Shown: positions 1,408-54,800, counted from the stretch's first letter. The stretch is DNA of 64,000 bases from Botryllus schlosseri (GCA_051294905.1 CM119371.1:29452001-29516000); one strand, 5' to 3'. Numbers and translations are program-made. Notes: generated by a model not told the origin, from the letters alone.

Positions 1408-4400
1408 ATGAAGTCCATAGTTTGCTGTTGCGGAATATGGTTTACAGTGATACGCGGATCTTTTGCGTTGCCTGGTGGGGCGCCGAGCGGGGCTTGCAAC
1501 ACGTTCACGCCGCGACACGCAGATCGAGACAACGCCGGGAGTTTCATCAGCCCGCAAAGCTCGGATTCGCTACCTTACGAAATACGGCTCTCCAAATCGA
1601 ATTTCACAAGCAATGAGGTAGTCAGAGGTGAGATCATGTATTTCAATCGAATAAAAATTTCAAGGTATACCTATACTTCATTGTATATTACAAGTAACTG
1701 TAGAGGTTGCCAAATGGGTCAGCGTTGGTCCTCTAGTAAAATTAGGGGCAACGCCGTAAATTTCGAATAGAATACAAGTATCCTACATTTTTTTTTACTT
1801 AGGAAGTAGGTAAACATTGCTTGAAGTAGAGGTAGGAAATAAATGCGTGATGAAAAGTACTCAAGAATGTGGATTTTGTCGACTTGCCGCGTACTTTTAG
1901 CAGTTAGTCGCAGTTGACTACTTTCGAAATTGCAAGATGCCCCAAATGACAAGTGAAACTACAAACACTTTCACTTTACCAAAATAAGCTCAGTTACCGT
2001 GACACAAGGGCTTTTATTCCCATTATTTTTATTTTACGTAGTAGAAAAGTGTCACGTTTATGAGTGCATCCCATTAGAAACTTGCAATGCGTCCTCTGTA
2101 TCATAGAACAAAAATATAAATTCGAAAACCACATCTCCTTGTAGTCGACATTATTCACCCTGCGTTAACCGTGAAAGTCACAGCTTCAATTTCGAAGGTA
2201 TATCCACAAAGCTGGACTGGCAAAATTAAACGGCATATCGCAACGATCTCCTAGAATTACTCACTTGAGTACATTTGCAATCGCATGTTTAGTACCTCAA
2301 CTTCAAGCAATGTTGCCAGGTCTTGAAATCGGATGCCCGACGTATAAGCAGAGCATGCGACAAAATGAAAAACCACAAAAGTGCATGGGACAGTTGGGAC
2401 ACTTGGGCATGCATCACTGCCGCATGTGACTTATTAACCCCAAACTAACCCTAATCTCAACCCTGTAACTCATCCCTATATATATCCTATCCCAACCCTA
2501 AATCCAACGACAACCTGTAATTTAACCTGCATGCTCATTTCTCGCATTTGTCGCATACTCATATATCCACGGGCCCCTGAAATCGTTAATTCCACGTAAT
2601 AGAATATAAATTTATTTCAATGTTTCTTCCTACACCTGACTATCCTCTTGATTATAAGTTTTTGGCCCCCATCTCCTGTGCTTGCGAGGCCCGTAAACAG
2701 GTCCAATTGTACAGATATGTGAATTGAATGTTCCAGTGTGGATAACGGTTACAAGAACCGGAGACGATTCCGGATATCGAGGCTTTCTTCTGCAAGCCCG
2801 AAGCAGCGCCAGTTTCGACAATGGGCCGCTGGGAACGTGGCAGAACCCGCCTGCGTTTACCAAAACGATGGATTGCAGCGGCGACAGCGATGCGATGACG
2901 CACAGTGAAGTCACAAACGTCAAAAACGAGGACACGGTTTTCGAGTGGAAGGCGCCGTGCCCGAGTGATATAGGAGACGTTGTGTTTACGTAAGCACTCG
3001 GTTTGTGTATGCAAGCGAGACAAGTGTTATTTGGCTCTTGAACAATGTGTTGATTTTGCGCTAATTGCAACGAATCTATTGGCTGAGAAATCAAGTCACA
3101 GCCGCGTCACAGCTAGTCAAGTATGTTTTTGCAATGCTTCAGCCTTCAACACAAAGTCAGATATGCAAATAATACACTGAGTCGACCCTAATTTCTCGGA
3201 TCATTCAAATAACCACTTCCACTTCTACTTAATATGTTTTTATGCAAAGCTACTCACGATTTAGACATTGAATTTTGTAAATTAGAAAATATCAAGATCT
3301 AACTTGTTTTAACACCTTATTCAGCGTCCACTTGCAACGTAATAATTTTATTTATCACACGAGCTTTCGGAGCTCCGTTCCTTCCTCAGGTGCTAAAGTG
3401 AAAATAACGCAAATCGATTATGAATTCAAACATATACGCATATTGCGACATCACAGAGAAGATAACTTTCAGGTCCGAAAATCGATTTGCGTTATTTTCA
3501 CTTTAGCACCTGACGAAGGAGAGGAGCTCCGAAAGCTCGTGTGATAAATAAAATTATTACGTTGCAAGTGGACGCTGAATGAGGTGTGAAAGCAACCAAG
3601 ATCGTAATATTTTCTATATAGTATGCTATCGGTTCAAAGAATTAGTAAATTGGAAAGTAGCTTTGGGAAATGTTTTGCATCGCCTTTACAAAGTATAAAT
3701 TGTCGTGACAAGCGGACGAAATAGCCTCCATACCACGGTAACTGAATTTGTTCTCGGAAGTTGCACAATGCACATATTTGCAGGGTTACCGTGTGTCCTC
3801 CTTTAACAGGAACATGAAAATGTCCTCCAATGACTCCTTTTTGATAATTCGCCCCCTATTATAGCTTTGATAGTCAGGCCATTGGACAGGCGCAACTAAA
3901 AACGCCATGAATGACGCGAAAACTCTAATGTGGATATTAGAGCGGGTCATTCGGTTGTAGGATAAAAAATCATTTTGGTTGACACAACAGTAGTATTATA
4001 GTAAAGTGGGTCATTCGGGACTCGAGTTGGATAAATGACCTCCATATCCCAAAATGTGGTAACCCGACATGTTTGTATTCATCATTTAGTCGCGAAAGAT
4101 CACCCGTCCATTTCAAAACAAGTCGCCTCCGACTAATCGGTGAGAGTATGCGATAGCTCAACTAAATCTACTTTATGAAACGATTACTAGCTCGCGTATT
4201 CTACAATTCCTCATTTCCACTTCCCTCGAAGTAGTTTTGACAAATGTTGAAAGTTGGGAATATTTACTTCTGCTTCTATTTATAGGATGAAAAAGCTAGT
4301 TTGAGTGACTATCGTAATAAATAGCGTGCATGAACGATAGGATAGCAACGGGGTGTCAAACTCAACTTGCCCCGCTGTTCGCAATTAAACCTTCAGACCA

Positions 4401-22075: not shown

Positions 22076-22852
22076 AAAAGGCTAATTCGAAGCTGTTACA
22101 TTTAATTTAATTTGTATTTTAGTAATCAGTGCGACACGAGCTTTCGATTAGGAACAGTTTTGTAGCATTCAGTAGCATCTGAGCACTTGGATTGCCAGCT
22201 ATAGGATAATCAATTACACTGGTTTTAGCCGGCTCAGCAGTCAGCACTAGACCGCTCTGAATATTCAAGTGTGACGACAGAGTTGCGCGTCTATCCGTAG
22301 GTTAGTGATCTAGAGTCCCAGTAAATGGCTTGAATAGTACGGGTTCTATAACACCACCCTAGTTTTAACACATAAATCCTTGCGTACACGACGACGTCAT
22401 TGTAACGAACTTCGATTTTCTCCTATATTGACGTCAGAACTCTTCAATTGCAACTTCACAGTTGATTCACGATCATGTTATATGGTTCTTTCGAGACTGC
22501 AATTGAAAATATAGGGTTGATATGGCTCCATTGACGAAAAAAGGATTCATTTCCTTGTCTTGAACGCACTAAAGAATACCTTTGAACAGGTCTACTTCAT
22601 TATATACCGCTTTTACTGTTTGCGATCACCCTCTTCAGAACATCCATTCGGATCCAGTCCTATACAGTCTGCGTGTTATAACTTATGAAACGAACGCTAG
22701 AATGTAGGGGGTGTTAATGACTCTACGTCGTATATACGTTTCCTATTTCTATTTCGAAACGTCCGAATATTTATACTATATGTTTTTTGAACAGCTTCTT
22801 TGAGGTACAGAACTTCAATATACAATTGAATAGTATATTCATATTAAAATGA

Positions 22853-22896
22853 ACCCGAATATTTTCGGCTGACACTCGTCAGGGGTAATCGTCAGC
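22853..22896 (-). ncRNA. Minimal type I hammerhead ribozyme (inverted copy)
   Basis: Reverse complement of 23973-24016. Confidence 0.85.
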
Positions 22897-23972
22897 AACT
22901 AGTAGAGAATTCGAAAGAACAGCGTATATTAACAATCGTAACACAAAATATGACGTCACCAGCACGAAATGTCGAATACGAGAGCGTTCAATGTACTATT
23001 TTTAGATGATACACGAACTCTTTTTGTTGACACAGCCTTGGCTGGTGTATTTTGATAAAAGTCGACTCCAAGGCGCACAAATGAAAGTGTGAGCGACCCT
23101 TTCCGAGTATGCGAAATCTGTCGTCTCGATAATTTTTCGCACAGGCGGGATTATCCAACAAGTGTTTGCCAATTGTAGAATTTATGGCCTTTGATTGGTC
23201 CGCATCAGTCTTGAGCGGGTGAGTTAAGGGTGAGCTTTTCATCGAGCGTGTTCTAATGAATCTAGGGACATGCTGATTTACGCGTTCCTGCAAGCGCTTT
23301 GACGTTCTTCCCACGTAGCCACAATCACAGTGGCACTTAAATTCGTAAGCTACATTGCTTTGCTGAAGTGCGGGTAGCACGTCTTTACGTGTTGCGGGGA
23401 GCAGTTGCGTTGTCGTGAAAATCACGACACAGTGAAGACCAACGTGATTTTCACGACAACGCAACTGCTCCCCGCAACACGTAAAGACGTGCTACCCGCA
23501 CTTCAGCAAAGCAATGTAGTTTACGAATTTAAGTGCCACTGTGATTGTGGCTACGTGGGAAGAACGTCAAAGCGCTTGCAGGAACGCGTAAATCAGCATG
23601 TCCCTAGATTCATTAGAACACGCTCGATGAAAAGCTCACCCTTAACTCACCCGCTCAAGATTGATGCGGACCAATCAAAGGCCATAAATTCTGCAATTGG
23701 CAAACACTTGTTGGATAATCCCGCCTGTGCGAAAAATTATCGAGACGACAGATTTCGCATACTCGGAAAGGGTCGCTCACACTTTCATTTGTGCGCCTTA
23801 GAGTCGACTTTTATCAAAATACACCAGCCAAGGCTGTGTCAACAAAAAGAGTTCGTGTATCATCTAAAAATAGTACATTGAACGCTCTCGTATTCGACAT
23901 TTCGTGCTGGTGACGTCATATTTTGTGTTACGATTGTTGATATACGCTGTTCTTTCGAATTCTCTACTAGTT

Positions 23973-24016
23973 GCTGACGATTACCCCTGACGAGTGTCAG
24001 CCGAAAATATTCGGGT
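23973..24016 (+). ncRNA. Minimal type I hammerhead ribozyme (Penelope-associated)
   Basis: ACCC-CUGACGA-G-UGUCAGC-C-GAAA-AUAU-UC^-GGGU: intact core, stem I ACCC/GGGU, palindromic helix III (AAUAUU). Predicted cleavage after 24012. Confidence 0.85.
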
Positions 24017-26289
24017 TCATTTTAATATGTATATACTATTCAATTGTATATGTTTTTTCTAAAATATTTAAACAATCATGTTTTTTATTCAAATATGATC
24101 AAAATATGATCATCACCTAGTCAAATCCGAGTCCGAGGGTTTTTGTGGAGGGTTGAGTCGAGTCAAAGTCAATGTCTTCACTGTTCAGTTACAAGTTCGA
24201 GCAATGCTTAACGCAATTTTTCATCACTCAGGTTCGTGATAGCGAATGCCTCTCAATCATATTATGCTAATGTTCATCATCCTTCGTAATTTATGACCCT
24301 ATTACTCCGATGCAAGAGTACAGATAGATGGAATACAAATAATGTGGAATGTATATTCTTCGAAGTTACAATGGAAGTTCTATTCCGGCCGTCGGAGTCT
24401 CGAGTCATATGACTTGTATACAAATCGAGTCAATACAAAAATTGACTCAAGTCGAAGCGAGTCAAATAAAGAGGGAGAAATTGACTCGGGTCGAGTCGAT
24501 TCACTGACAAATCGCCACTAGAGTCGGACTTGAGTCGATTAATGTATCGAGTTATTACAACCCTTGATGAATTATCCATGACTGCATGCTATATTGAGTA
24601 TGTTCGTTATTCAGGACCGTTAGATTATGCAGGTGTTCCGGTCCGAAACTTACAAAGATTCTCATTATAATACAAATATTTCCTACCAGGCTTAGCAAAT
24701 TTTGTTTCGTATAAGAACCAATTTGCACGACTACAGTACAAGATTATTTTCCCACTAATTAGTTCTCATGAGCGCAGTCGACAGTGCGGCCAAGGTACTA
24801 ACTGTACCGCAGGTCGAATGTTCATGTGATGTTATTGATGTGTAATCGAACTCCAGTAGGTTCTCTTATTCGTTGCATATAGTATATCTTTCAAATTCCA
24901 ATAGACCTGATCTTATTCAGGTATAATACTTGACCGTATCCTAGTAGTCTGTCGATAAGGATTAAGTAGATGACCGACAACAACGTTAGTGACAAGATAC
25001 AGGCATTTGTCCTCCATAATAACCTACCATATATACGATATAATAAGCAACTTCATCCATCGTGCGTTCCGCACAAATTCCACAATTTCCTTCTTTAATT
25101 TTTTTGTGATATCAAAATAACTGATGAAGACATCCACAGTGTATTTAATTTTCACTTTGTAATATACCAAATACATGAAGCAGGCCTATACTACTGCGTG
25201 GAAGCTCTGGATTGGAACCATTGGATTCCGATCCAAAAATCACTGTGTTTGCCTTTTGCCTTGCCCGTTAGATTCGCTTCTCACGAATTTGCGGTCAAGG
25301 CTCTTTCAATATGTTCCGAATGACATCAACACAATGCAACAATGGTATATACACGGGGATATGGACATAAGGATATATACATAATCTGAAATAGGCGAAA
25401 ATTTTTTGAGCTATGAAGTTACGAAACATATTTATGACTTGTGATATTGAGCAAAGGGTTGGAGAAGCCAGGTGCTTTTCTCTCCGTGACTAAACGACAC
25501 TGGATATAGGCTAGAGTTGGACCCTCATTACCGTAGCATTCCTCAGTCCGCTTAGGGCATTTTTGTCGCTCACAAACCGACATCCCTCTTCACTTCGGCA
25601 CAATGCAGATATTACACTAACGTCAGGAAATGTAAAAACAAGCCATTATAGCCTAGCTCATTTCCTGTGTCGATATTGAATGGAGGCATGCAGTGAGGAA
25701 TATTGTGAATGTATCAATCCCGCTCTGTCTAGTCTAGTGAGATCGTTTGAGATGCCAAGTTTTGTATACGCGTTAACAGTAGAGTTTGTAATAGTTATCT
25801 TAATAGCTGGATGAGGAGCGGAGGAATATTACGTAGTTTGCTTCTGTCAGTACGGACGTATGTCGAATACCAGGGAATTTGGCACTTGGCGGGCCTTTAT
25901 AGTACTAATCCTAACCTTCCCTCACCCCTAACAACAAACCCTAACAATAAACTCGCCCTAACTATAGCCCTAACGGCCTGACCCAACCCCAGACCGTAAA
26001 TAACCCTGATCCCTATCCCGAATACATTGATATTGACATGAAGGGCCATGTGCCGAATAGCACATAGCACATGCTTACATAATCATTATAGTTTCTACAA
26101 TCTTCATGCCGAATTCACAAAGTGCCGAGTTTGCTGGTAAGGTATACACAATGTACAATGCAATAAGACACAATGCGTTGCAATGAACAGAACAGCACTG
26201 ATATCCGTCTCTGCCCTGCCCGATGTCGCTGTTCTTTCTTCAATTTTTGTCTCTATTCCGCGACTCTCTGTTGTACTTTCCATTCCTTT

Positions 26290-27803: not shown

Positions 27804-30800
27804 ATGATATTATATTTATGTTTCGCACTATTAATAGCTGGCGCAAGCATACAAGGTGAGTTAGTTTCTCCATCCCTTCTTGATTTGAGTTTTCCCTGCT
27901 AGGGAGATAGAGAGCGAGAGAGAGGGAGAGAGAGAGAGCGAGAGAGAGCCGATAAGAGAGACAGAGAGCCAGTGTGGGCGGATGAGAGAGAGAGAGAGAG
28001 AGAGAGCTAGTGATAGAAAGAGAGCGGGGAATATTTATATATAAATAGAAGGAGCAACCCCTGCCCCATGTATAGGCCTACATCTGACGATTCTGGTCAG
28101 ATCAAAATCAACAAAAGTCAGAGTCGTCAATCCCAATGCTCAAGTACAAATATAAGTAATGTCACGCCTTCTTTATCGATTAGAAATAGATGTAGCCGTT
28201 CACAAACAGCGTTGAAGTAGAATTCTAAACCGAAAAATATTGTTCAAGTAATTCACTGCTCACAGCTTTCAAAATTACAAGAATGCATAATGGCAAAACG
28301 CTTGAAGAATGACGAATGGCGCACCATCTATACCAGACCCGGGCAAAGTGCGGCCCGTGAGCCAAGTGCGGCACGCGAAAAGCTGGTTGAAATTCAAAAC
28401 CTACGTTTTAACGTTGCTGCGTGGACTAAACCATAGGCTGTATAAATTGAACCGAAAATTCATTTACTTTCAAGCATGTTCATTATTTTGCCGCCATTAC
28501 GCAGCCTACTTACGTCGCATTCGTAATCCAGATTCGAAATAACGTAACTGTAGAAAAGTATGCCGTATCAATTAAAGTCACTAAAAGTCATCAAACCTTC
28601 TTTGTTGCCATTGCCACACTATGCGTTACACGGCCTGTGCTCGAAATTGTTACGTTTACAAATCACTAACTCGTAAAATAAGTCAATCAGTGCCAGTGAT
28701 TACTAATGAGTCATCATCACCAATAAAGGATGAACTGGCATGTGAAAAAGAGAAAGCAGAAAGTTGAAAATCATTGTTTTACGGGAGTCAGGGGTGAACC
28801 CGTCTTTTCAGTAGTTAGTGCCGAGCAGGTCCCCGTGTTTAAGGAGTAGGCCTATGTATAATGTAAGTCGGCTATGACAAAAACACGAATACATACCCTC
28901 GGTCAAGGTAAGGGGAATTTCGGAAGAACTGCAAGCTTCGCTCAACAGCAAGGCTATTTCGCCAAGCTGCACACTGCTAGGAAGGCAGCTTCGAAGGCAA
29001 TAAGCTTTGTAGTATCTCAAACACATTTTAATGTCTTGATAGACCACCGCGGACAGGGGTTTAAAGAGAGTTCAAAATGTATCTTCTCATTTGGCCCGCG
29101 GAGAAAATATTTGCCCATCCTTGATCTATACTCATGATTGTTCAAATTATTATACTTTGCTGCCACGATTTAGTTGCCATATCGCGCGGCTGTTACAACA
29201 ATCTAACGCATAAAAGTGATGTATAGCGATCCCAACACTACTTATTTTATGTGTCGAGGGTATATTCAATCGGGAGGCTGCACAGACTAAAGAATAACCA
29301 CTTGAGTCAGCAAGTTGTGCAAGAAGGCAACGTACCTAACTGAGTATTAAAAGATAGAAGTACTCAGTTACTGACAGTCTCTGATTTCACAATTTTATCT
29401 AGAGTACCTGTAAATTATTTCTTCAGGACGGAAATGTTCAAACTATTCATTTGAATGCAACGATGGAAGTCAGTGTCTATATATTGGTCACTTTTGCGAC
29501 GGGCGGAAACACTGCAGGTAATATGATGGGTCGCTGACTGCTTGCACGGTGACCAGAGCCGAACGGTCGCATAGTTTCCCGTACGGCTCCACTTCAGACT
29601 ATCGTCAGATTAGAAACTGCTACTAAGACCCTTGCAATTGTTTTAGTAAACTCAGCTTGCCAAATTTAGATGTGGGTCGCGGAATATGTTCCAACCGGTA
29701 ATTGGGACGTGACAATGAAAAGGCTACGAACATTGCAAGCCACATTGCCCACACTGCAAACCAATAAGGTTTGGCCTCTTTTTCGCTTAGCCGATCGGTT
29801 TCAAAATGAAACCTTTGTCGCGGACCTATCTCTTAAAACGCAAATGTTTAACAGTGGAAACTCAATGAAGCTGATTCACTATAGGGCAGTGGTTTTTACC
29901 CAGGATTCACACGGGCCCTAGGGCCTCGCTGAGCCAGTCACAGAAATTTACAGGAGGTAAGGACACTCAATAAATTCGTGGTGCGCCCGTGCTAGCCATC
30001 ATTGGCTGCAGAGAATCAGGCGCGTTCACCTCCAATTGTGACTGTTCCGGTGCTATACGTTATGGGCAGTACCGTGCGCAAGGAAGACTTGTGTTCGAAA
30101 TCGAAACCAGTTCCTTTAGAAATACTGATTCATTACAATAGTTTCATTTTGTTTTATAAATCATGTTTTATTTCATTTGTACTTTTACCGCTGATGCTGA
30201 TGCATACTCATAATCCATGATGTGTGTTGTGTATATGTACCTGTATTCTATAGTAATGTTTTAGGTGGTGGAGATGTGGTACCGATGGATCACTGGGACC
30301 GAAAATACTTTAAAAATTCTCCATCTTAATTCCATGATTACACTCCGCGAACTTGTATACAATTTCATGTTGGCAAAATCTTTACCCACATACAAAAAAT
30401 GTCGACGTGCGCGAGCTATAGGGTCTCTGACAGATGTTTTCTGTTTTGGGGGGTGTAAACTAAATTTCGATCGACGCACACATTTTTCTTTGTAACCTTC
30501 AGTACGAACAAACCAGCAATCCTTTTTAATGTGAAGTGTAAGGCTTGTATGAGGCTATATAATGACAGATATTAACTTATTCAATACCTTCCCTGAGTGG
30601 AATTTTTTTCGATTAAAGTATAAAATTCGTAGGGGGGACCAATGATACAATGGCCAAATCAAGCAAAATAATCAAGCATACTAATCATGCAACAACTAAA
30701 ACATGCCTACACACAGAAAATATTTATGTAATAATTGCATGTGTTGTTTTATCGCTATAGGTATTTGGAAGTCACAAGGTCGATTTTCGGGCAATATGTA

Positions 30801-33800
30801 TGTACCCTCACATTTAGAAGTTCGAGCCGAAATCGAAACGTGATTTTATTGCAACATTTGAGTTATTATCAGTTCTATTTTGTGACGGTTGCCACCCAAC
30901 ATCCTTCTTTGGCTTGATGTAGGTTTGGTCATCATACACAGCAAGAAAAGTTGTGACAGCTGAGTTTTTGAGTATATGTCTCATAGGTACCTGGGTCGTG
31001 TGCCGTGGTACCCACCAGGTGGGGACCGCTGACACGTTCAAGTAACATATTTTAAACGTTCATAAGTATTTTTTGAAGAAAAAACGGATATTCACGTATG
31101 TATGCACGATAGGTAGAGCTTGTATCAAAGTGTCGAACCAGCAAATGATCTGCTATTACCGTCTGAACATTTTGGGGCCAGAGATCATTTTCCAATTTTT
31201 GATCCATCGGCACCACATCTTCCCTATATACTGCGGTATATTTATGTTTCGGAGACTCGGCGAAAATGCGGCGTTCACCTGATGCTAGCAGATTTAAGTA
31301 AACCCCCAAATGTGGTCCTCTCCATGAACTGCATCGTCATAAAGGGACCTATATAAGTCTTTATACCCCATCGCATTGTCGTCCACAGGAGGTAATTCCA
31401 CCAATCTCGCTTCTGCTGATCCATACAATTCCGATTAAACTATAGGTGACTGTTCAATTATGCAATAATATTACAGCTACAATTGTAGCACGCCCGTGTC
31501 TTACGAAATTTGAGGTGTGGATTCGCTGACAAATGGCACAATTGAGTGCCACTCCCACTCGGTACAACATAAAAAAGGCATTCCGCTGTCACCCTATGAT
31601 ACAAATTCATCTTTATGAATATTTTCAGGGATGGTAGCGACGAACTCATGTCATTACCTGTCAATGGTTCGGGGTATCGAGCATGTTATGGACGAGAATC
31701 AGCATACAACGGAGTGGAACCATGTCGGATAAGCGACAAATCAATTTGCGACGGAGTACGAACATGTGCCGAAGGTTAAAAATTTCATGCCGACTCTATT
31801 ATGGTAACAGCTGATATCGAAATACAATGATACGATGTTAGGCATCGGTTCCGTAATTGTAAATAAGGAAGATATATCAGTGTATTATAGTCTGTTTATG
31901 TTCGACGAATCATGATGACATTTTGTGCACTCAGTCAAGCAAGAGGCCTCATTAAAGATTTATACCAACAGACTAGTCCACGTGTTTGGTGCATTGGAAT
32001 TTTCCAGGAACCACTTACAGTTATACAGCCTGCCTCCTAGACCAATAAACCAAGTTCACCGCAATTGTGGTTTCCCTCCCCATGACGTACGATATATGCA
32101 CCTACGAGGCTTAACCCTGCATCTAGGAAAGATTACGAAGTGTTTCTTTTCAACAGGAACGGATGAATGCTTATGTGGCGATAAAAATAAAGGTAATACG
32201 CTAAATATGTACTGATTTTCATTAAATAACTTATTGACAGTACAGAATTTGAATACAGCTTCAAACGTCCGTTCATATTAGGGGTTTTTCCGTGATTAAT
32301 ATACCAGTAGGCCTACGGTTTAGGAGAAGGGCCAAAACAACACTTCGTCAGACCCCAAAAGAAACATTTGTCTCGGGCCATCAAGGGGTGATCAAATAAC
32401 CTTCCGGAGGCATCGCCTCCACGGCCCTCGTTTAACCGCTGCTCGACTTCCAGAGATTATTTTTGTGTACGGCATGCAGCCCGGCGTTTTCAAATTCACG
32501 ATTGAGTTACTTCAATAATATCAGCAATTGCATATATTTCGGTTTCATTTTCAGTCCACGTGGTCAGATTAACCGGTAAAGCTGAACGACGTGGTGCCTT
32601 TGTAAACATGAGGCATGCTAATGTTAATGATATACCATCGGTAATTATACATCTACCGGGCCCGTTGTTAATAATTACTTTGTTGAATATTGTTATTTCG
32701 TGACCTCCCGCTTGCTATACAGTCAAAAAATATTGGAATCGCCTAAGAATGACTAAAAGAAAAACATCTTTCGTGAGACGCACGGGTTGGCATTTCATGT
32801 ATAATCATTTTCTCATACATTGCCATTTAGGCGCTTATATAAACAGTTGATAATTGAATATATAGCTATGCACATATGAAGGTCTCGGCCCACATGCGGC
32901 GGTAATTTTCGGCCAAGCTTTTCTCGCCGCGAATGCGGAGTCTCATATCGGCCGAAATAGTTTATGACTTGAAGTGCAGTGGCGCGGTAATGTGTATTTC
33001 TACATAACTAAAGCCTATTTTCTTTGGGGTGGAGTATTCATATAAAAATCAAGACAGGTAGCGACATCAAATCTAGCCAGGCGCGAAAAATTTTCACAAG
33101 TTTTAATAATATCACCAAAAGAGGCTTCATAATTTCCGTCTTTACGAAATCACTTGAGAGAGAGAGAGACAACATAATATTCTTTTTCGCCTGCACCGCC
33201 GAGATGCGGTACGACCGTAAGGTCACCTAGTCTGCACCCCGTGTTTTCTCCTTCCCCCTTCGAGCTCGCCCCCCCCCAATTAGGGGGCTTGGGGTGTGGT
33301 AATTACGGCAGTATCAAGGAGCCTATGTAAAATAGTAGCAGCGGAGATAATACGGAATTCCGTATTTTCAAATTAAAGCGGTTGTCTTGAATATGAGATC
33401 ATGAAAACCGCAATATCACAAACATTCGTTTTGTCACGGCATGAAAATCAGTATTTCTGTGCTCATAAGTCGAAATTTATGGAATGATTTCTACTTTTAC
33501 TTGGGTATCATCGATCCATTCGTTTTATCGTGCACGCATAGGACCTCTAAACTAGGTATGTGACTGCATTACACAATTATACAATTTATCAGCGAAAATA
33601 GAAGATAGAATGCGATACCGCAAAGTTGGGACATAGTGTTATGATGCAATACACTACCAACCTATACATCACTGAAATCTGAAATACAATAACCTCCTCC
33701 GATTGTTAACGAGTAATACGAACGTATGAATTATATATATTCGTTCGATTTGAATCATTCAAGATAGTTGGATAAAGTGAACAGAATATAGCAGTGGTTC

Positions 33801-51800: not shown

Positions 51801-54800
51801 CCCGGCCTAAATTGATACAAGAGAAAATCACATTTTGACGATGTGTGTTTACTGTCAGTCTGCTGGATCGGCTCACTTTCAATAGGACAATTCATTCCTG
51901 TCAAATAAGGCCTACTTGGAAAGACATAGAACACCCCTATAAGTGCTGCGGCCCACGGCGTCGTCAAAACGCGAAAACTGGCCCGCGAGCACATTTGAGT
52001 TTGAGACCTCTGTTCTAGAACATAACCAGGCCATGAGTCAAAAATCTTCTATTGGCAAACATTTACTAGAAAATCATACATGTGCTGCTAACTACCACGA
52101 GGACATGTTCTCTGTATTGGCTAAGGGTCGCAATTTATTTCATTTGTCTGTTCTTGAGTCCACCATCATCACTTTGAGTAAACCTAGTTTGTGCCAACAG
52201 AAAGAATTTGTGTATCATTTGAAAATCGCGCATTAACTTGTTTGGCTTCGCTATCTCCATGCCAACGCTTCAGTTCTCTCGTTTTCCTAACTTTGTATGT
52301 TTTCAGTGTGACGTCATAATTAGCGATATATATTGTTGCTGAACAAAGTTATTCGAATTCTCGCATTATTGCTGACGATATTCCCCTGACGAGCGTCAGC
52401 CGAAAAGCTTCGGGAATAAATATGAATATTTTACTCAAATGTGTTATGAATTTTTTTTATTATTTCTACCATAATACATAGGCTATTGTAACCACTGGAA
52501 TTCTCCATAGGGTCAGATTTCGGTAAAATATTGTTTTTTTTTTCATGTAAAAAGTTGCCTGTTTCTGAGCCAATCAGGTTTTTTCATGCCAAACTACTTC
52601 GTTGGGACAGCCAGTTCCTACCAGAAATGGAGATAAGTGGTACAAGTTTTATGTTATGTTGGAAAGCACCTAATTTGCATACGTTTGGTCAAAATTTGGT
52701 CAAAATTCAGTTTGTTTAGGTCAAAAAATGTCAAAATTTTGATTTTGTAGGTCCAAATTTTCCTTTTTTTTAGGTAAAAAACCACCCTAGTGATTACATT
52801 CTAATTCTGTCTCAGTGTCGTCCTACAAAAAAATCGACCAAGAGAATGATGGTCATTGATGTGGGAGTATTTTCAGCTTCTGTGTCTTCAATTGGAGATA
52901 TTTTTAGTTGTAATATGTTTGCTACAGGCCTACCTTTCCTCGACTTGGTTTCGTAAATGGAGAGAATTATTGGAATTTTCGAAGTTCAATGATAGCGCAT
53001 TGTTCAAATTAAATTACACCTTAGAGATAATTATTCTTTATTGAAGTTTTGATAGTTGCCGATGTTATATTCAATGATGCCTCCCGAATACCCGAAGTAT
53101 TGTACAAGTTAATGAGACTTCGGATGATCGCATTCGAAAGATACCAATATCTATTGTAATAACAACGGATTGCTCTTTATTTGGAGAACGCCACAATTCG
53201 TTGACGTACGCCTACTTGAACGGTACGTAATGGCATTATAGATTACTCTTATTTCCGAGCGACATTGCCATATCGTAAGGTAGAGAATGCCACATGCTCT
53301 CACTTTTAAAGCAAGTTATTTCCATGGACGTAGATAATTAGAAGAGAAACCTCCAGTTTTATTATATTCATACGGCTTCGACTATTTAGTTTCAGACCAT
53401 TGTCAAGGCCGAAGTTGAAGCGAGCAATTTCGGGAATCGTCATTTGCTGGTGTATTTCGATTCTTATTGGATTTATACCTTTGACCCCTTCGTTCGAAGA
53501 TTACTTTCTGAAAGAAGTGTCGTGAGTGAAATCTTCTTTGACGTTGATGCGACAATGAGTCTATTGGTACTTTAATTGAGGCGGTTTGCTGGTTACATTG
53601 GTTGCCTGATATATATATTTAATATTTAAAAATCATATATGCTACTGAAAAACAGTTCTTTTTCGGAGTGACAGCGATTTCGTAAGTTATTTTGACTCTA
53701 ACTAATGAATTAAATCGGATCTCATATTAAACTTATTGTGCATCAGCTACAATAAAGTTCAATGTTGAACACTGAATACTGGTCAGCAAAAAAACCAATG
53801 AAATCGGTCCGCAGATCAGAAAATGATGTCGAATCTGCTGTAGAGGGCTCAAATTTCATTCATTCATACCACGATACGCTATTTTGTCCAAAAATACGCG
53901 ATCCCATGAGGAGCCATCACCGGTAACAACGCATCGACAGGCAATGGTTATTCATAGCGAAATACTCCAGTTATAGCGAAGTTGGCGTGAACACTGTAAT
54001 GCGTGTCTTTAGGTTCAATGACACTGCAATCTTTAAAACAAAAGTCCACCGCAACGATAAAGAGCTTTTGATAAAATGGTTGGGATTCCTAAACAACGGC
54101 ACGATTCGAAGACACGGCGACAGGTGATTACTACCATTTTATGTGCATTCCGAATTGGAAATTACTGACGATTTGATCGATTGTCATAACAGCACGGAAT
54201 GGGGCACATTGAGAAGACTGATTTCTCAAATAAATACATACAGTCCGATTTTGGCTACACACGAATTCGGATATTATTCAAGTCATACAGTTTGCCTGCC
54301 TACGTTCTTTCCCGACCGAAAGAATGACGGGTCATGGGTGTACTCATTGGTTCTTCTATTGCTAAATTTCCTGTCGTTCGTTTTCATGCTCGTGGGCTAC
54401 ATCGCCTTGTACAGGTATGAGTTATCAGTCTAGGGCAAGTTTTTGAAGCAGTTAAATCCGTGGAAAGTTGCATTTATTTTTGAAAAAAGTTGCAGAAGTT
54501 GCATTTTGACCACATTTTGCTCGGTTGACTAAAAAAATGGTCAATTTTCCGGCTCAGCTCCCGAAATACCCGTGGAAGCGTTACTTCGGTGCTGATTTAC
54601 GGTGTTTCAATTGAATTCGGCCGTGTATTTCACCAAAAATGAAAATACTTTCATGAAAAATCGAGAAAGTTGCAAAATGTTGCAAAAAGTTACATGAAAA
54701 AAATGGTCAAAAGTTTCAAAAAGTTGCACTGTAAGATTCTTTCAAACAGCTTAAAGCAGCATTTTACATATCTTACGAGTATTTAGGAAGCTGCCGGAAG

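Follow-up and report, generated by a model that had tools for sequence, protein, structure and literature searches.

A branch of Penelope-like elements in Botryllus schlosseri with a candidate type I pseudoknot hammerhead in its terminal repeat

Penelope-like elements in the genome of Botryllus schlosseri carry in their terminal repeat what is probably a type I hammerhead ribozyme of the dimer type, in which loop II forms a presumably activating pseudoknot with the strand just upstream of stem I; in a quick tree the form falls within one branch of these elements. The argument is built from sequence, namely from the letters of the motif, the covariation of its strands, their spacing, the element context and the position of a start codon, and by analogy with known hammerheads the pseudoknot would be activating, the motif would act as a dimer, possibly with the aid of protein, and cleavage would have a role in the life cycle of the element. 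The window, that is the whole stretch of DNA analysed, is 64,000 nt long (GCA_051294905.1 CM119371.1:29452001-29516000) and comes from a host genome of 495 Mb; coordinates count from its first letter and are collected in Table 1.

Table 1. Features of the pseudoknot hammerhead copies and their elements in the window.
Feature	Position	Strand	Remarks
Pseudoknot 5' strand GCUGAC, subfamily B	52371..52376	+	letters checked; covariation in other copies
G 3' of pseudoknot strand	52377	+	opposite first loop base
Stem I 5' strand	52379..52385	+	7 bp with 52412-52418
Hammerhead core C3-A9, CUGACGA	52386..52392	+	
1-bp stem II G10.1-C11.1 with 7-nt loop	52393..52401	+	G10.1 = 52393, C11.1 = 52401; RF03152 consensus geometry
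Loop CGUCAGC	52394-52400	+	putative pseudoknot 3' strand = loop bases 52395-52400
G12-A13-A14, helix III palindrome, C17	52402..52411	+	AAGCUU 52405-52410; C17 52411
Predicted cut, subfamily B copy	after 52411	+	site from hammerhead numbering
Stem I 3' strand	52412..52418	+	
ATG homologous to RT-endonuclease ORF start codon of tandem copies	52422..52424	+	truncated copy here, of which just the tail is present
5'-truncated Penelope-like element, subfamily B	52011..52444	+	95.6% to L041 over 434 nt
End of GIY-YIG frame, subfamily B element	52234-52236	+	stop
Subfamily A ribozyme	23973..24016	+	pseudoknot strand 23973-23978, core 23987-23993, loop 23995-24001
Subfamily A ribozyme, 3' part	24006-24012	+	AAUAUU 24006-24011, C17 24012; loop UGUCAGC
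ATG homologous to ORF start codon, subfamily A	24027..24029	+	14 nt past predicted cut
5'-truncated element, subfamily A	23424..24051	+	GIY-YIG frame end 23881; element end ~39 nt past predicted cut
Inverse copy of subfamily A ribozyme	22853..22896	-	
Inverted 5'-truncated partner copy	22817..23426	-	609-nt arms, 99% complementary

Three hammerhead copies had been proposed for the window and re-reading confirmed the coordinates and letters of all of them. They have the type I core, with C3 U4 G5 A6 N7 G8 A9, G12 A13 A14 A15.1 and U16.1 H17, and lie at the 3' ends of truncated Penelope-like elements, the ribozyme forming part of the terminal repeat. The Penelope context of the original prediction holds, and the element ORF (857-aa open frames) reads as RT followed by a C-terminal GIY-YIG domain, with recognizable DKG and YxGRT motifs. 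Pfam returns an RVT_1 match in the element and PF01541 on two homologues, the endonuclease part of the element itself being without a Pfam match. Further traits shared with canonical endonuclease-bearing Penelope-like elements are a single ORF, truncated, tandem and inverted copies and a short tail of 33-39 nt; no CX2-5CxxC linker, the lack of which is a criterion for the Penelope/Poseidon clade, was seen between RT and endonuclease, and the tree described below is one without named references. Head-to-tail units are spaced by 2722 and 2683 nt. Subfamily A is by far the most abundant, and protein identity to A is 63% for subfamily B, 69% for C and 58% for E. A 920-nt repeat elsewhere in the window (30310-31230) is 85% identical to the DNA adjoining a subfamily A copy in locus L066.

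The motif is numerous, and far more so than its controls. The pattern GCTGACG-N5-12-CTGANGA has 3 matches in the window vs 0 in 100 shuffles, the core pattern has 6832 matches in the genome vs 33 for its reversed control, and an exact GCTGAC upstream together with GTCAGC in the loop occurs in 4651 genome copies, the control giving 0. Among the first 100 matches listed for the AAGCUU subfamily, counted by eye, 44 have GGUCAGC as their loop and 12 have CGUCAGC.

Because the three window copies share one hexamer the window alone offers no covariation, and the signal comes from other subfamilies. Across subfamilies and relatives pairing is kept by different hexamers, GCUGAC/GUCAGC, GCCGAC/GUUGGC (the pair of subfamily C), ACUGGC/GCCAGU, UCCGAC/GUCGGA and UGACGC/GCGUCA, and over 11 representatives changes on both sides are found at five of the six positions (1-5), position 6 being invariably C-G. 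The spacer between the end of the strand and the core is usually 8-9 nt. Within an unselected set of 111 distinct contexts (loci L001-L150), 73 pair at 6/6 with a spacer of 7-9 and 0 do so at 28 other spacers, while 94 pair at 5/6 or better; these contexts are related copies and not independent events, and the pair counts ignore relatedness, so that the signal is one carried by about ten lineages. Judged by these substitutions, the pairing between loop II and the 5' flank is under selection, as a helix of 6 bp.

This length departs from the original prediction, which had the heptamer GCUGACG (52371-52377 in the subfamily B copy) form a conserved 7-bp pseudoknot with the whole of loop II. The pairing is indeed kept, but the seventh opposition in the 94 well-paired contexts is G.U in 37, G.A in 32, G.G in 20 and Watson-Crick in just 3, which points to a 6-bp helix with a probable non-canonical cap. 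Both this tally and a hand-picked alignment of 18 rows rule out a helix of seven pairs. A crystallised pseudoknot hammerhead likewise ends in non-canonical pairs (PMC11300833). The alignment takes in two outside rows and leaves out L140, the upstream strand of which derives from an inverted duplication, as well as the single-insertion variants L118, L149 and L150; in it the pseudoknot cells are 100% paired, with three pairs changed on both sides, and slid registers are 21-35% paired. Stem I, said to differ between subfamilies and yet to remain paired, does so in the same 18 rows, 95.6% of its cells being paired, and covaries, with both-sided change in three of four pairs.

A further gauge of the pairing is provided by partner strands that were predicted from loops before their DNA was fetched. 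For loop GCCAGU the predicted partner ACUGGC was present in 17/23 contexts. For GUCAGU the prediction of ACUGAC was borne out in part, with the exact partner in 4/16 contexts and pairing of at least 5/6 in 14/16, and for AGUCGGU the predicted ACCGAC was found in 0/3 contexts, so that this prediction failed. In the families with a U3-A8 core the predicted partner was present in 2/2 cases of the UUGAAAA/UGUCAGCU family, loop GUCAGC being matched by GCUGAC; loop AGGCACC is matched by UGUGCC at 5/6 pairs in two of three loci (U.C at position 1), and loop GGGCACA pairs 6/6 with one wobble in one of two; one further locus is rearranged. These sister families (UUGAAAA and UUGAUAA in G000; L258-L265) are abundant and have the same knot with an 8-nt spacer, and one of them has an imperfect palindrome of 7 nt. 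A sub-lineage with a G.A mismatch, ACUGGC with loop AGCAAGU, makes up 6 of the first 100 matches listed, and the knot of the 5' copies L153 and L167 has a G.G mismatch; together these suggest that a perfect knot may not be needed for spread. Compensations in single insertions count for little, since the uncompensated ACUGGC/ACCAGU also appears, twice.

Outside this genome we collected 98 loci (L151-L248) from metagenome and genome collections, most of which showed no hammerhead with the patterns used, often for want of downstream DNA. In four outside families, 47-61% identical, the design persists in a different sequence, with a shuffle p between 0.004 and 0.03 for each: UCCGAC/GUCGGA in L151 and L152, UCUGAC/GUCAGA with core UUGAAGA in L158, L206 and L207, UGACGC/GCGUCA in L168 and GCAUU/AAUGC in L155. 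Cross-family MAFFT did not align the X1, X3 and X4 strands, and their pairs were therefore read by anchoring on the core. The knot of the UCUGAC/GUCAGA family is mismatched or decayed in L153, L156, L157, L161, L167 and L191, and in another outside family, L164, pairing was no better than in shuffles (p 0.58). Positions 1875-1940 of L164 form a variant that possibly lacks the stem II pair; its knot has 7 bp and a bulge and its helix III is longer, the pairing alone being not significant. At greater distance, 32-45% identity, the elements have minimal hammerheads of the ordinary kind, their helix II being 4-7 bp long. In a quick, unrooted RT tree of 48 of 49 rows (L202 was dropped for coverage) 15 rows labelled as knot-type, together with L153 and L167, which also proved to carry the knot, are set apart by a single branch from every row of ordinary type, the SH-aLRT of this branch being 89, or 95 without L164. 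We take the outside contigs to be host DNA of other eukaryotes; no relative was found in a viral contig collection. Penelope-like RT ORFs, some with hammerheads, also turned up in several bacterial and archaeal bins (L228-L248), probably through eukaryotic contamination.

Kept across the families are the catalytic core, including C3-G8 or U3-A8, stem I and H17. A loop of 7 nt closed by G10.1-C11.1 is the rule, with loops of 8 nt in C, D and J and of 6 nt in X4. Helix III is a perfect 6-nt palindrome in 81/111 contexts and, as had been noticed from the window, changes in letters while staying palindromic, AAGCUU accounting for 57/111 and AAUAUU for 23/111.

Two readings of the upstream strand had been left side by side, a tertiary contact with loop II and a decoy. 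Covariation across subfamilies and relatives supports the first. According to the second the strand would mainly prevent a helix between loop II and the catalytic CUGAC, and the molecule would toggle between folds as a switch. It is true that most of the predicted monomer ensemble is taken up by the loop:core hairpin in subfamily A, the most abundant family, and in two B copies (P 0.81-0.99), and that many loops keep 4-5 of 6 possible core pairs with G.U counted, but P is at most 0.12 in the seven remaining sequences that were folded (C, D, E, E2, F, one B and the artefact L140). In C, D, E and E2 loop:core pairing is worth 0 to -2.7 vs -7.6 to -8.9 kcal/mol for the upstream helix, and in X3 and X4, where the loop could form only 3 bp with the core, the upstream strand tracks the loop even so. 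Loop:core pairing is thus gone in several subfamilies that retain the upstream pairing, and the near-constant 8-9-nt spacer suits a structural brace and is unneeded by a decoy. A switch is in our view very unlikely; in the most abundant family loop:core pairing seems incidental to a resemblance in letters, though it could slow folding there. The upstream CUGACGA was also considered as an alternative core and rejected, having neither the 10.1-11.1 pair nor a stem I in A and B and being absent in C, E, H and X3.

In the tertiary-contact reading helix II would be reduced to G10.1-C11.1 and six of the seven loop bases would pair with the strand just 5' of stem I, in such a way that the knot helix could stand in both for helix II and for the usual loop-loop contact and hold stem I alongside. 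The six pairs at the 3' side of the loop would stack on C11.1 to give about 7 bp next to stem I, itself at most 7-8 bp long, and an upstream strand that crosses straight into stem I would, on geometric grounds, explain the 8-9-nt spacer. The same two strands could in principle act in the opposite sense, as a plain inhibitory hairpin around the core that would hold the ribozyme inactive pending its refolding by a partner or protein. Several predicted folds do show a simple hairpin with stem I unformed, a satellite-RNA hammerhead is described in which contacts between the helix I loop and that of helix II control cleavage (PMC6155905), and Penelope hammerheads are reported to be slow in vitro (PMC4209133). 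Against this, the knot helix is compatible with stem I, which covaries as well, the invariant G10.1-C11.1 with its 7-nt loop is the design of a fast, crystallised ribozyme, and without the knot the motif would be left with a 1-bp helix II and no contact. We therefore regard inhibition as very unlikely. Lowest-energy folds of monomer and dimer are mostly inactive forms, as given by a folding program that does not handle pseudoknots. In several subfamilies the bases C11.1-A14 can also pair with those at the cut site (24002-24013 and 52401-52412 in the window), giving an inactive monomer hairpin.

To complete the palindromic helix III of 6 nt the motif would need a second copy of itself, for example in a head-to-tail transcript. 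As it cannot close in a monomer, a dimer is to be expected, like for other Penelope hammerheads (PMC4209133). Computed energies of the helix III self-duplex are -5.7 kcal/mol for AAGCUU and -1.6 kcal/mol for AAUAUU. The inverted partner copy in the window lies on the opposite strand and so could not supply a dimer partner within one transcript.

In tandem units the ATG of the ORF lies 9 nt (B) and 14 nt (A) past the predicted cut, and in the outside relatives L153 and L167 the distance is 3 nt; the N-termini of these ORFs match full-length homologues. With the predicted cut thus 3-14 nt 5' of the RT-endonuclease start codon in the copies examined, cleavage would trim or release unit-length RNA. 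No pile of read ends was seen at 24012/24013 in four RNA runs, which cover the motif on both strands and were compared with subfamily A only, an insensitive test in that the reads come mostly from diverged passenger copies and the libraries were not built to show ends. In L153, L167 and L206 (family X2) the 3' strand of stem I overlaps the start codon and folding would hide the AUG. Several loci of ordinary type, L192 (257-300), L179, L182, L189 and L208, have an ATG within ACAUGU, their helix III palindrome, on the 5' side of the cut; that of L192 opens an 826-aa frame. Cleavage there would part the start codon from the ORF, the opposite of what is predicted for the knot type.

Inserted copies extend 33-39 nt past the cut, which means that their templates were uncut at that site, as also described in PMC11167929. 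It might then be asked whether the complementary strands owe their retention to events at the level of DNA or of reverse transcription, such as fold-back priming or template switching, or whether the motif has stopped cutting and serves as a signal for protein binding or translation. Two short loci, L140 and L259, are inverted duplications with the junction at or beside the pseudoknot strand, suggestive of fold-back or template switching during insertion. However, these are the only two such junctions noticed among about 68 short loci, in an unsystematic screen, and conservation extends to core, 3-8 pair (C-G or U-A), H17 and stem I alike, making such a cause most improbable.

An Rfam scan of the whole window gave no hammerhead match. 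When a 101-nt stretch was searched, RF00163 matched it with a score of 22.8 bits and an E of 0.00088, short of the cut-off of 34. RF03152 reached 22.9 bits in L140, an inversion artefact, and 12.4 bits in L107 vs a cut-off of 56.3, with model positions 1-24 unmatched; RF03152 gave no match for the window copy or for L168. A third, unrelated hammerhead family is present in the window in a 137-nt inverted pair (3361-3389 on the minus and 3510-3538 on the plus strand). Its helix II is of the ordinary kind and 4 bp long, A9 is followed by an additional A and the palindrome is AGCU, which is the classic Penelope minimal type.

The closest known structure is the RAGATH-1 or PK hammerhead (RF03152, PDB 8YDC), also of type I with G10.1-C11.1, a 7-nt loop and a 6-bp upstream pseudoknot that replaces helix II in the crystal, and cutting at 16/min (PMC11300833). 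Neither this resemblance nor the start codon that closely follows the cut figured in the original prediction. Unlike the Penelope motif, RAGATH-1 has as described a 5-bp helix IV, an A-rich linker and a minor-groove triplex (PMC11300833). Just 8-11 nt, stem I included, separate strand and core in our motif, leaving no room for helix IV and the linker. Pairing that could correspond to helix IV amounts to 1-3 bp in 9/12 representatives; it is plausible in A and B, where as in X5 4-5 weak bp are found, and is not kept elsewhere. Helix III is a 6-nt palindrome here vs about 20 nt in the RF03152 model, and the host is a eukaryotic retroelement, unlike that of RAGATH-1. The motif is thus not a member of RF03152; by analogy it would work like a pseudoknot hammerhead and be a new form of the Penelope dimer-type hammerhead.

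A similar Watson-Crick brace, from the bases after 10.1 to the far end of stem I, is described for a type II hammerhead with a 1-bp stem II and a 6-bp pseudoknot, the activity of which fell by about 20-fold to more than 100-fold when the knot was shortened and was rescued by compensation (Perreault 2011, PMC3088659, Fig 4). That form is metagenomic and type II with a closed helix III, unlike ours, which can be viewed as its circular permutation. All three hammerhead types are stated to be able to form pseudoknots, as are about 40% of representatives, a repetitive type I set being left out of part of this analysis (PMC3088659).

With the Penelope hammerheads of Cervera and De la Pena 2014 (PMC4209133) the motif shares the terminal-repeat site, thousands of truncated copies, inverted pairs, a short stem I, a palindromic helix III and the U3-A8 core variant. 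The helix II of their Fig S3 has at least 3 bp in 56/56 sequences, and A9 is almost always followed by an extra base, in contrast to 1 bp and no extra base here; helix II also has at least 3 bp in all 34 rows of Craig 2021 File S2. No 1-bp-stem example was found among the Naiad 'HHR_core' elements in the parts of Craig 2021 at hand. Some nematode Naiad 3' ends in the supplement of PMC8557442 seem by eye to be hammerheads in which loop II contains both the cut site and the 3' strand of stem I, a rearrangement that resembles types of PMC10085705. Penelope minimal hammerheads are described as lacking tertiary contacts (PMC6155905), and a 1-bp helix II without evident contact as slow, about 0.01/min (PMC13725137). 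Short helix II forms exist in the hammerheads of chryso- and fusarivirus 5'-UTRs, one of which cuts 7 nt before a start codon; unlike the Penelope motif these have a long helix III and, in the text available, no clear loop contact (PMC13725137). The PAc hammerhead of Anolis Poseidon is likewise at the start of the ORF, but its cut is 26 nt past the ATG and its stem II is ordinary; it is reported to cleave only with protein, to be dispensable for insertion in vitro and to leave no RNA-seq ends (PMC11167929). The form is not described in the accessible portions of PMC6765202, PMC10085705, PMC6155905, PMC7229834 or bioRxiv 10.64898/2026.07.22.740005.

Each ingredient of the motif is already known separately. 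Lünse, Weinberg and Breaker reportedly described Penelope-associated short-stem-III variants that cleave as dimers in 2017; our literature search found no 1-bp-stem pseudoknot hammerhead in Penelope elements, and the 2017 alignment may already include the form. Pseudoknot hammerheads with a 1-bp stem have otherwise been described from bacteria and phages, and the present motif would extend this architecture to a eukaryotic retroelement. Such a form is missed by descriptor searches that require helix II and by Rfam cut-offs. Penelope hammerheads have been described as minimal motifs of low activity that have a long helix II and lack a tertiary contact; the knot branch has the opposite design, covarying and in thousands of copies, and offers biochemistry a shorter natural pseudoknot hammerhead. 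More tentatively, and with less than even confidence, helix II may have been rebuilt as a bare knot without helix IV, a RAGATH-1 or pistol-like fold of about 48 nt, independent of phages, in which knot and palindrome dimer would both be needed. If this is true cleavage could be far faster than in the slow Penelope hammerheads tested so far, the cut in tandem transcripts would set the 5' end of the RNA and hence translation or circularisation, and the purpose of Penelope hammerheads would become directly testable.
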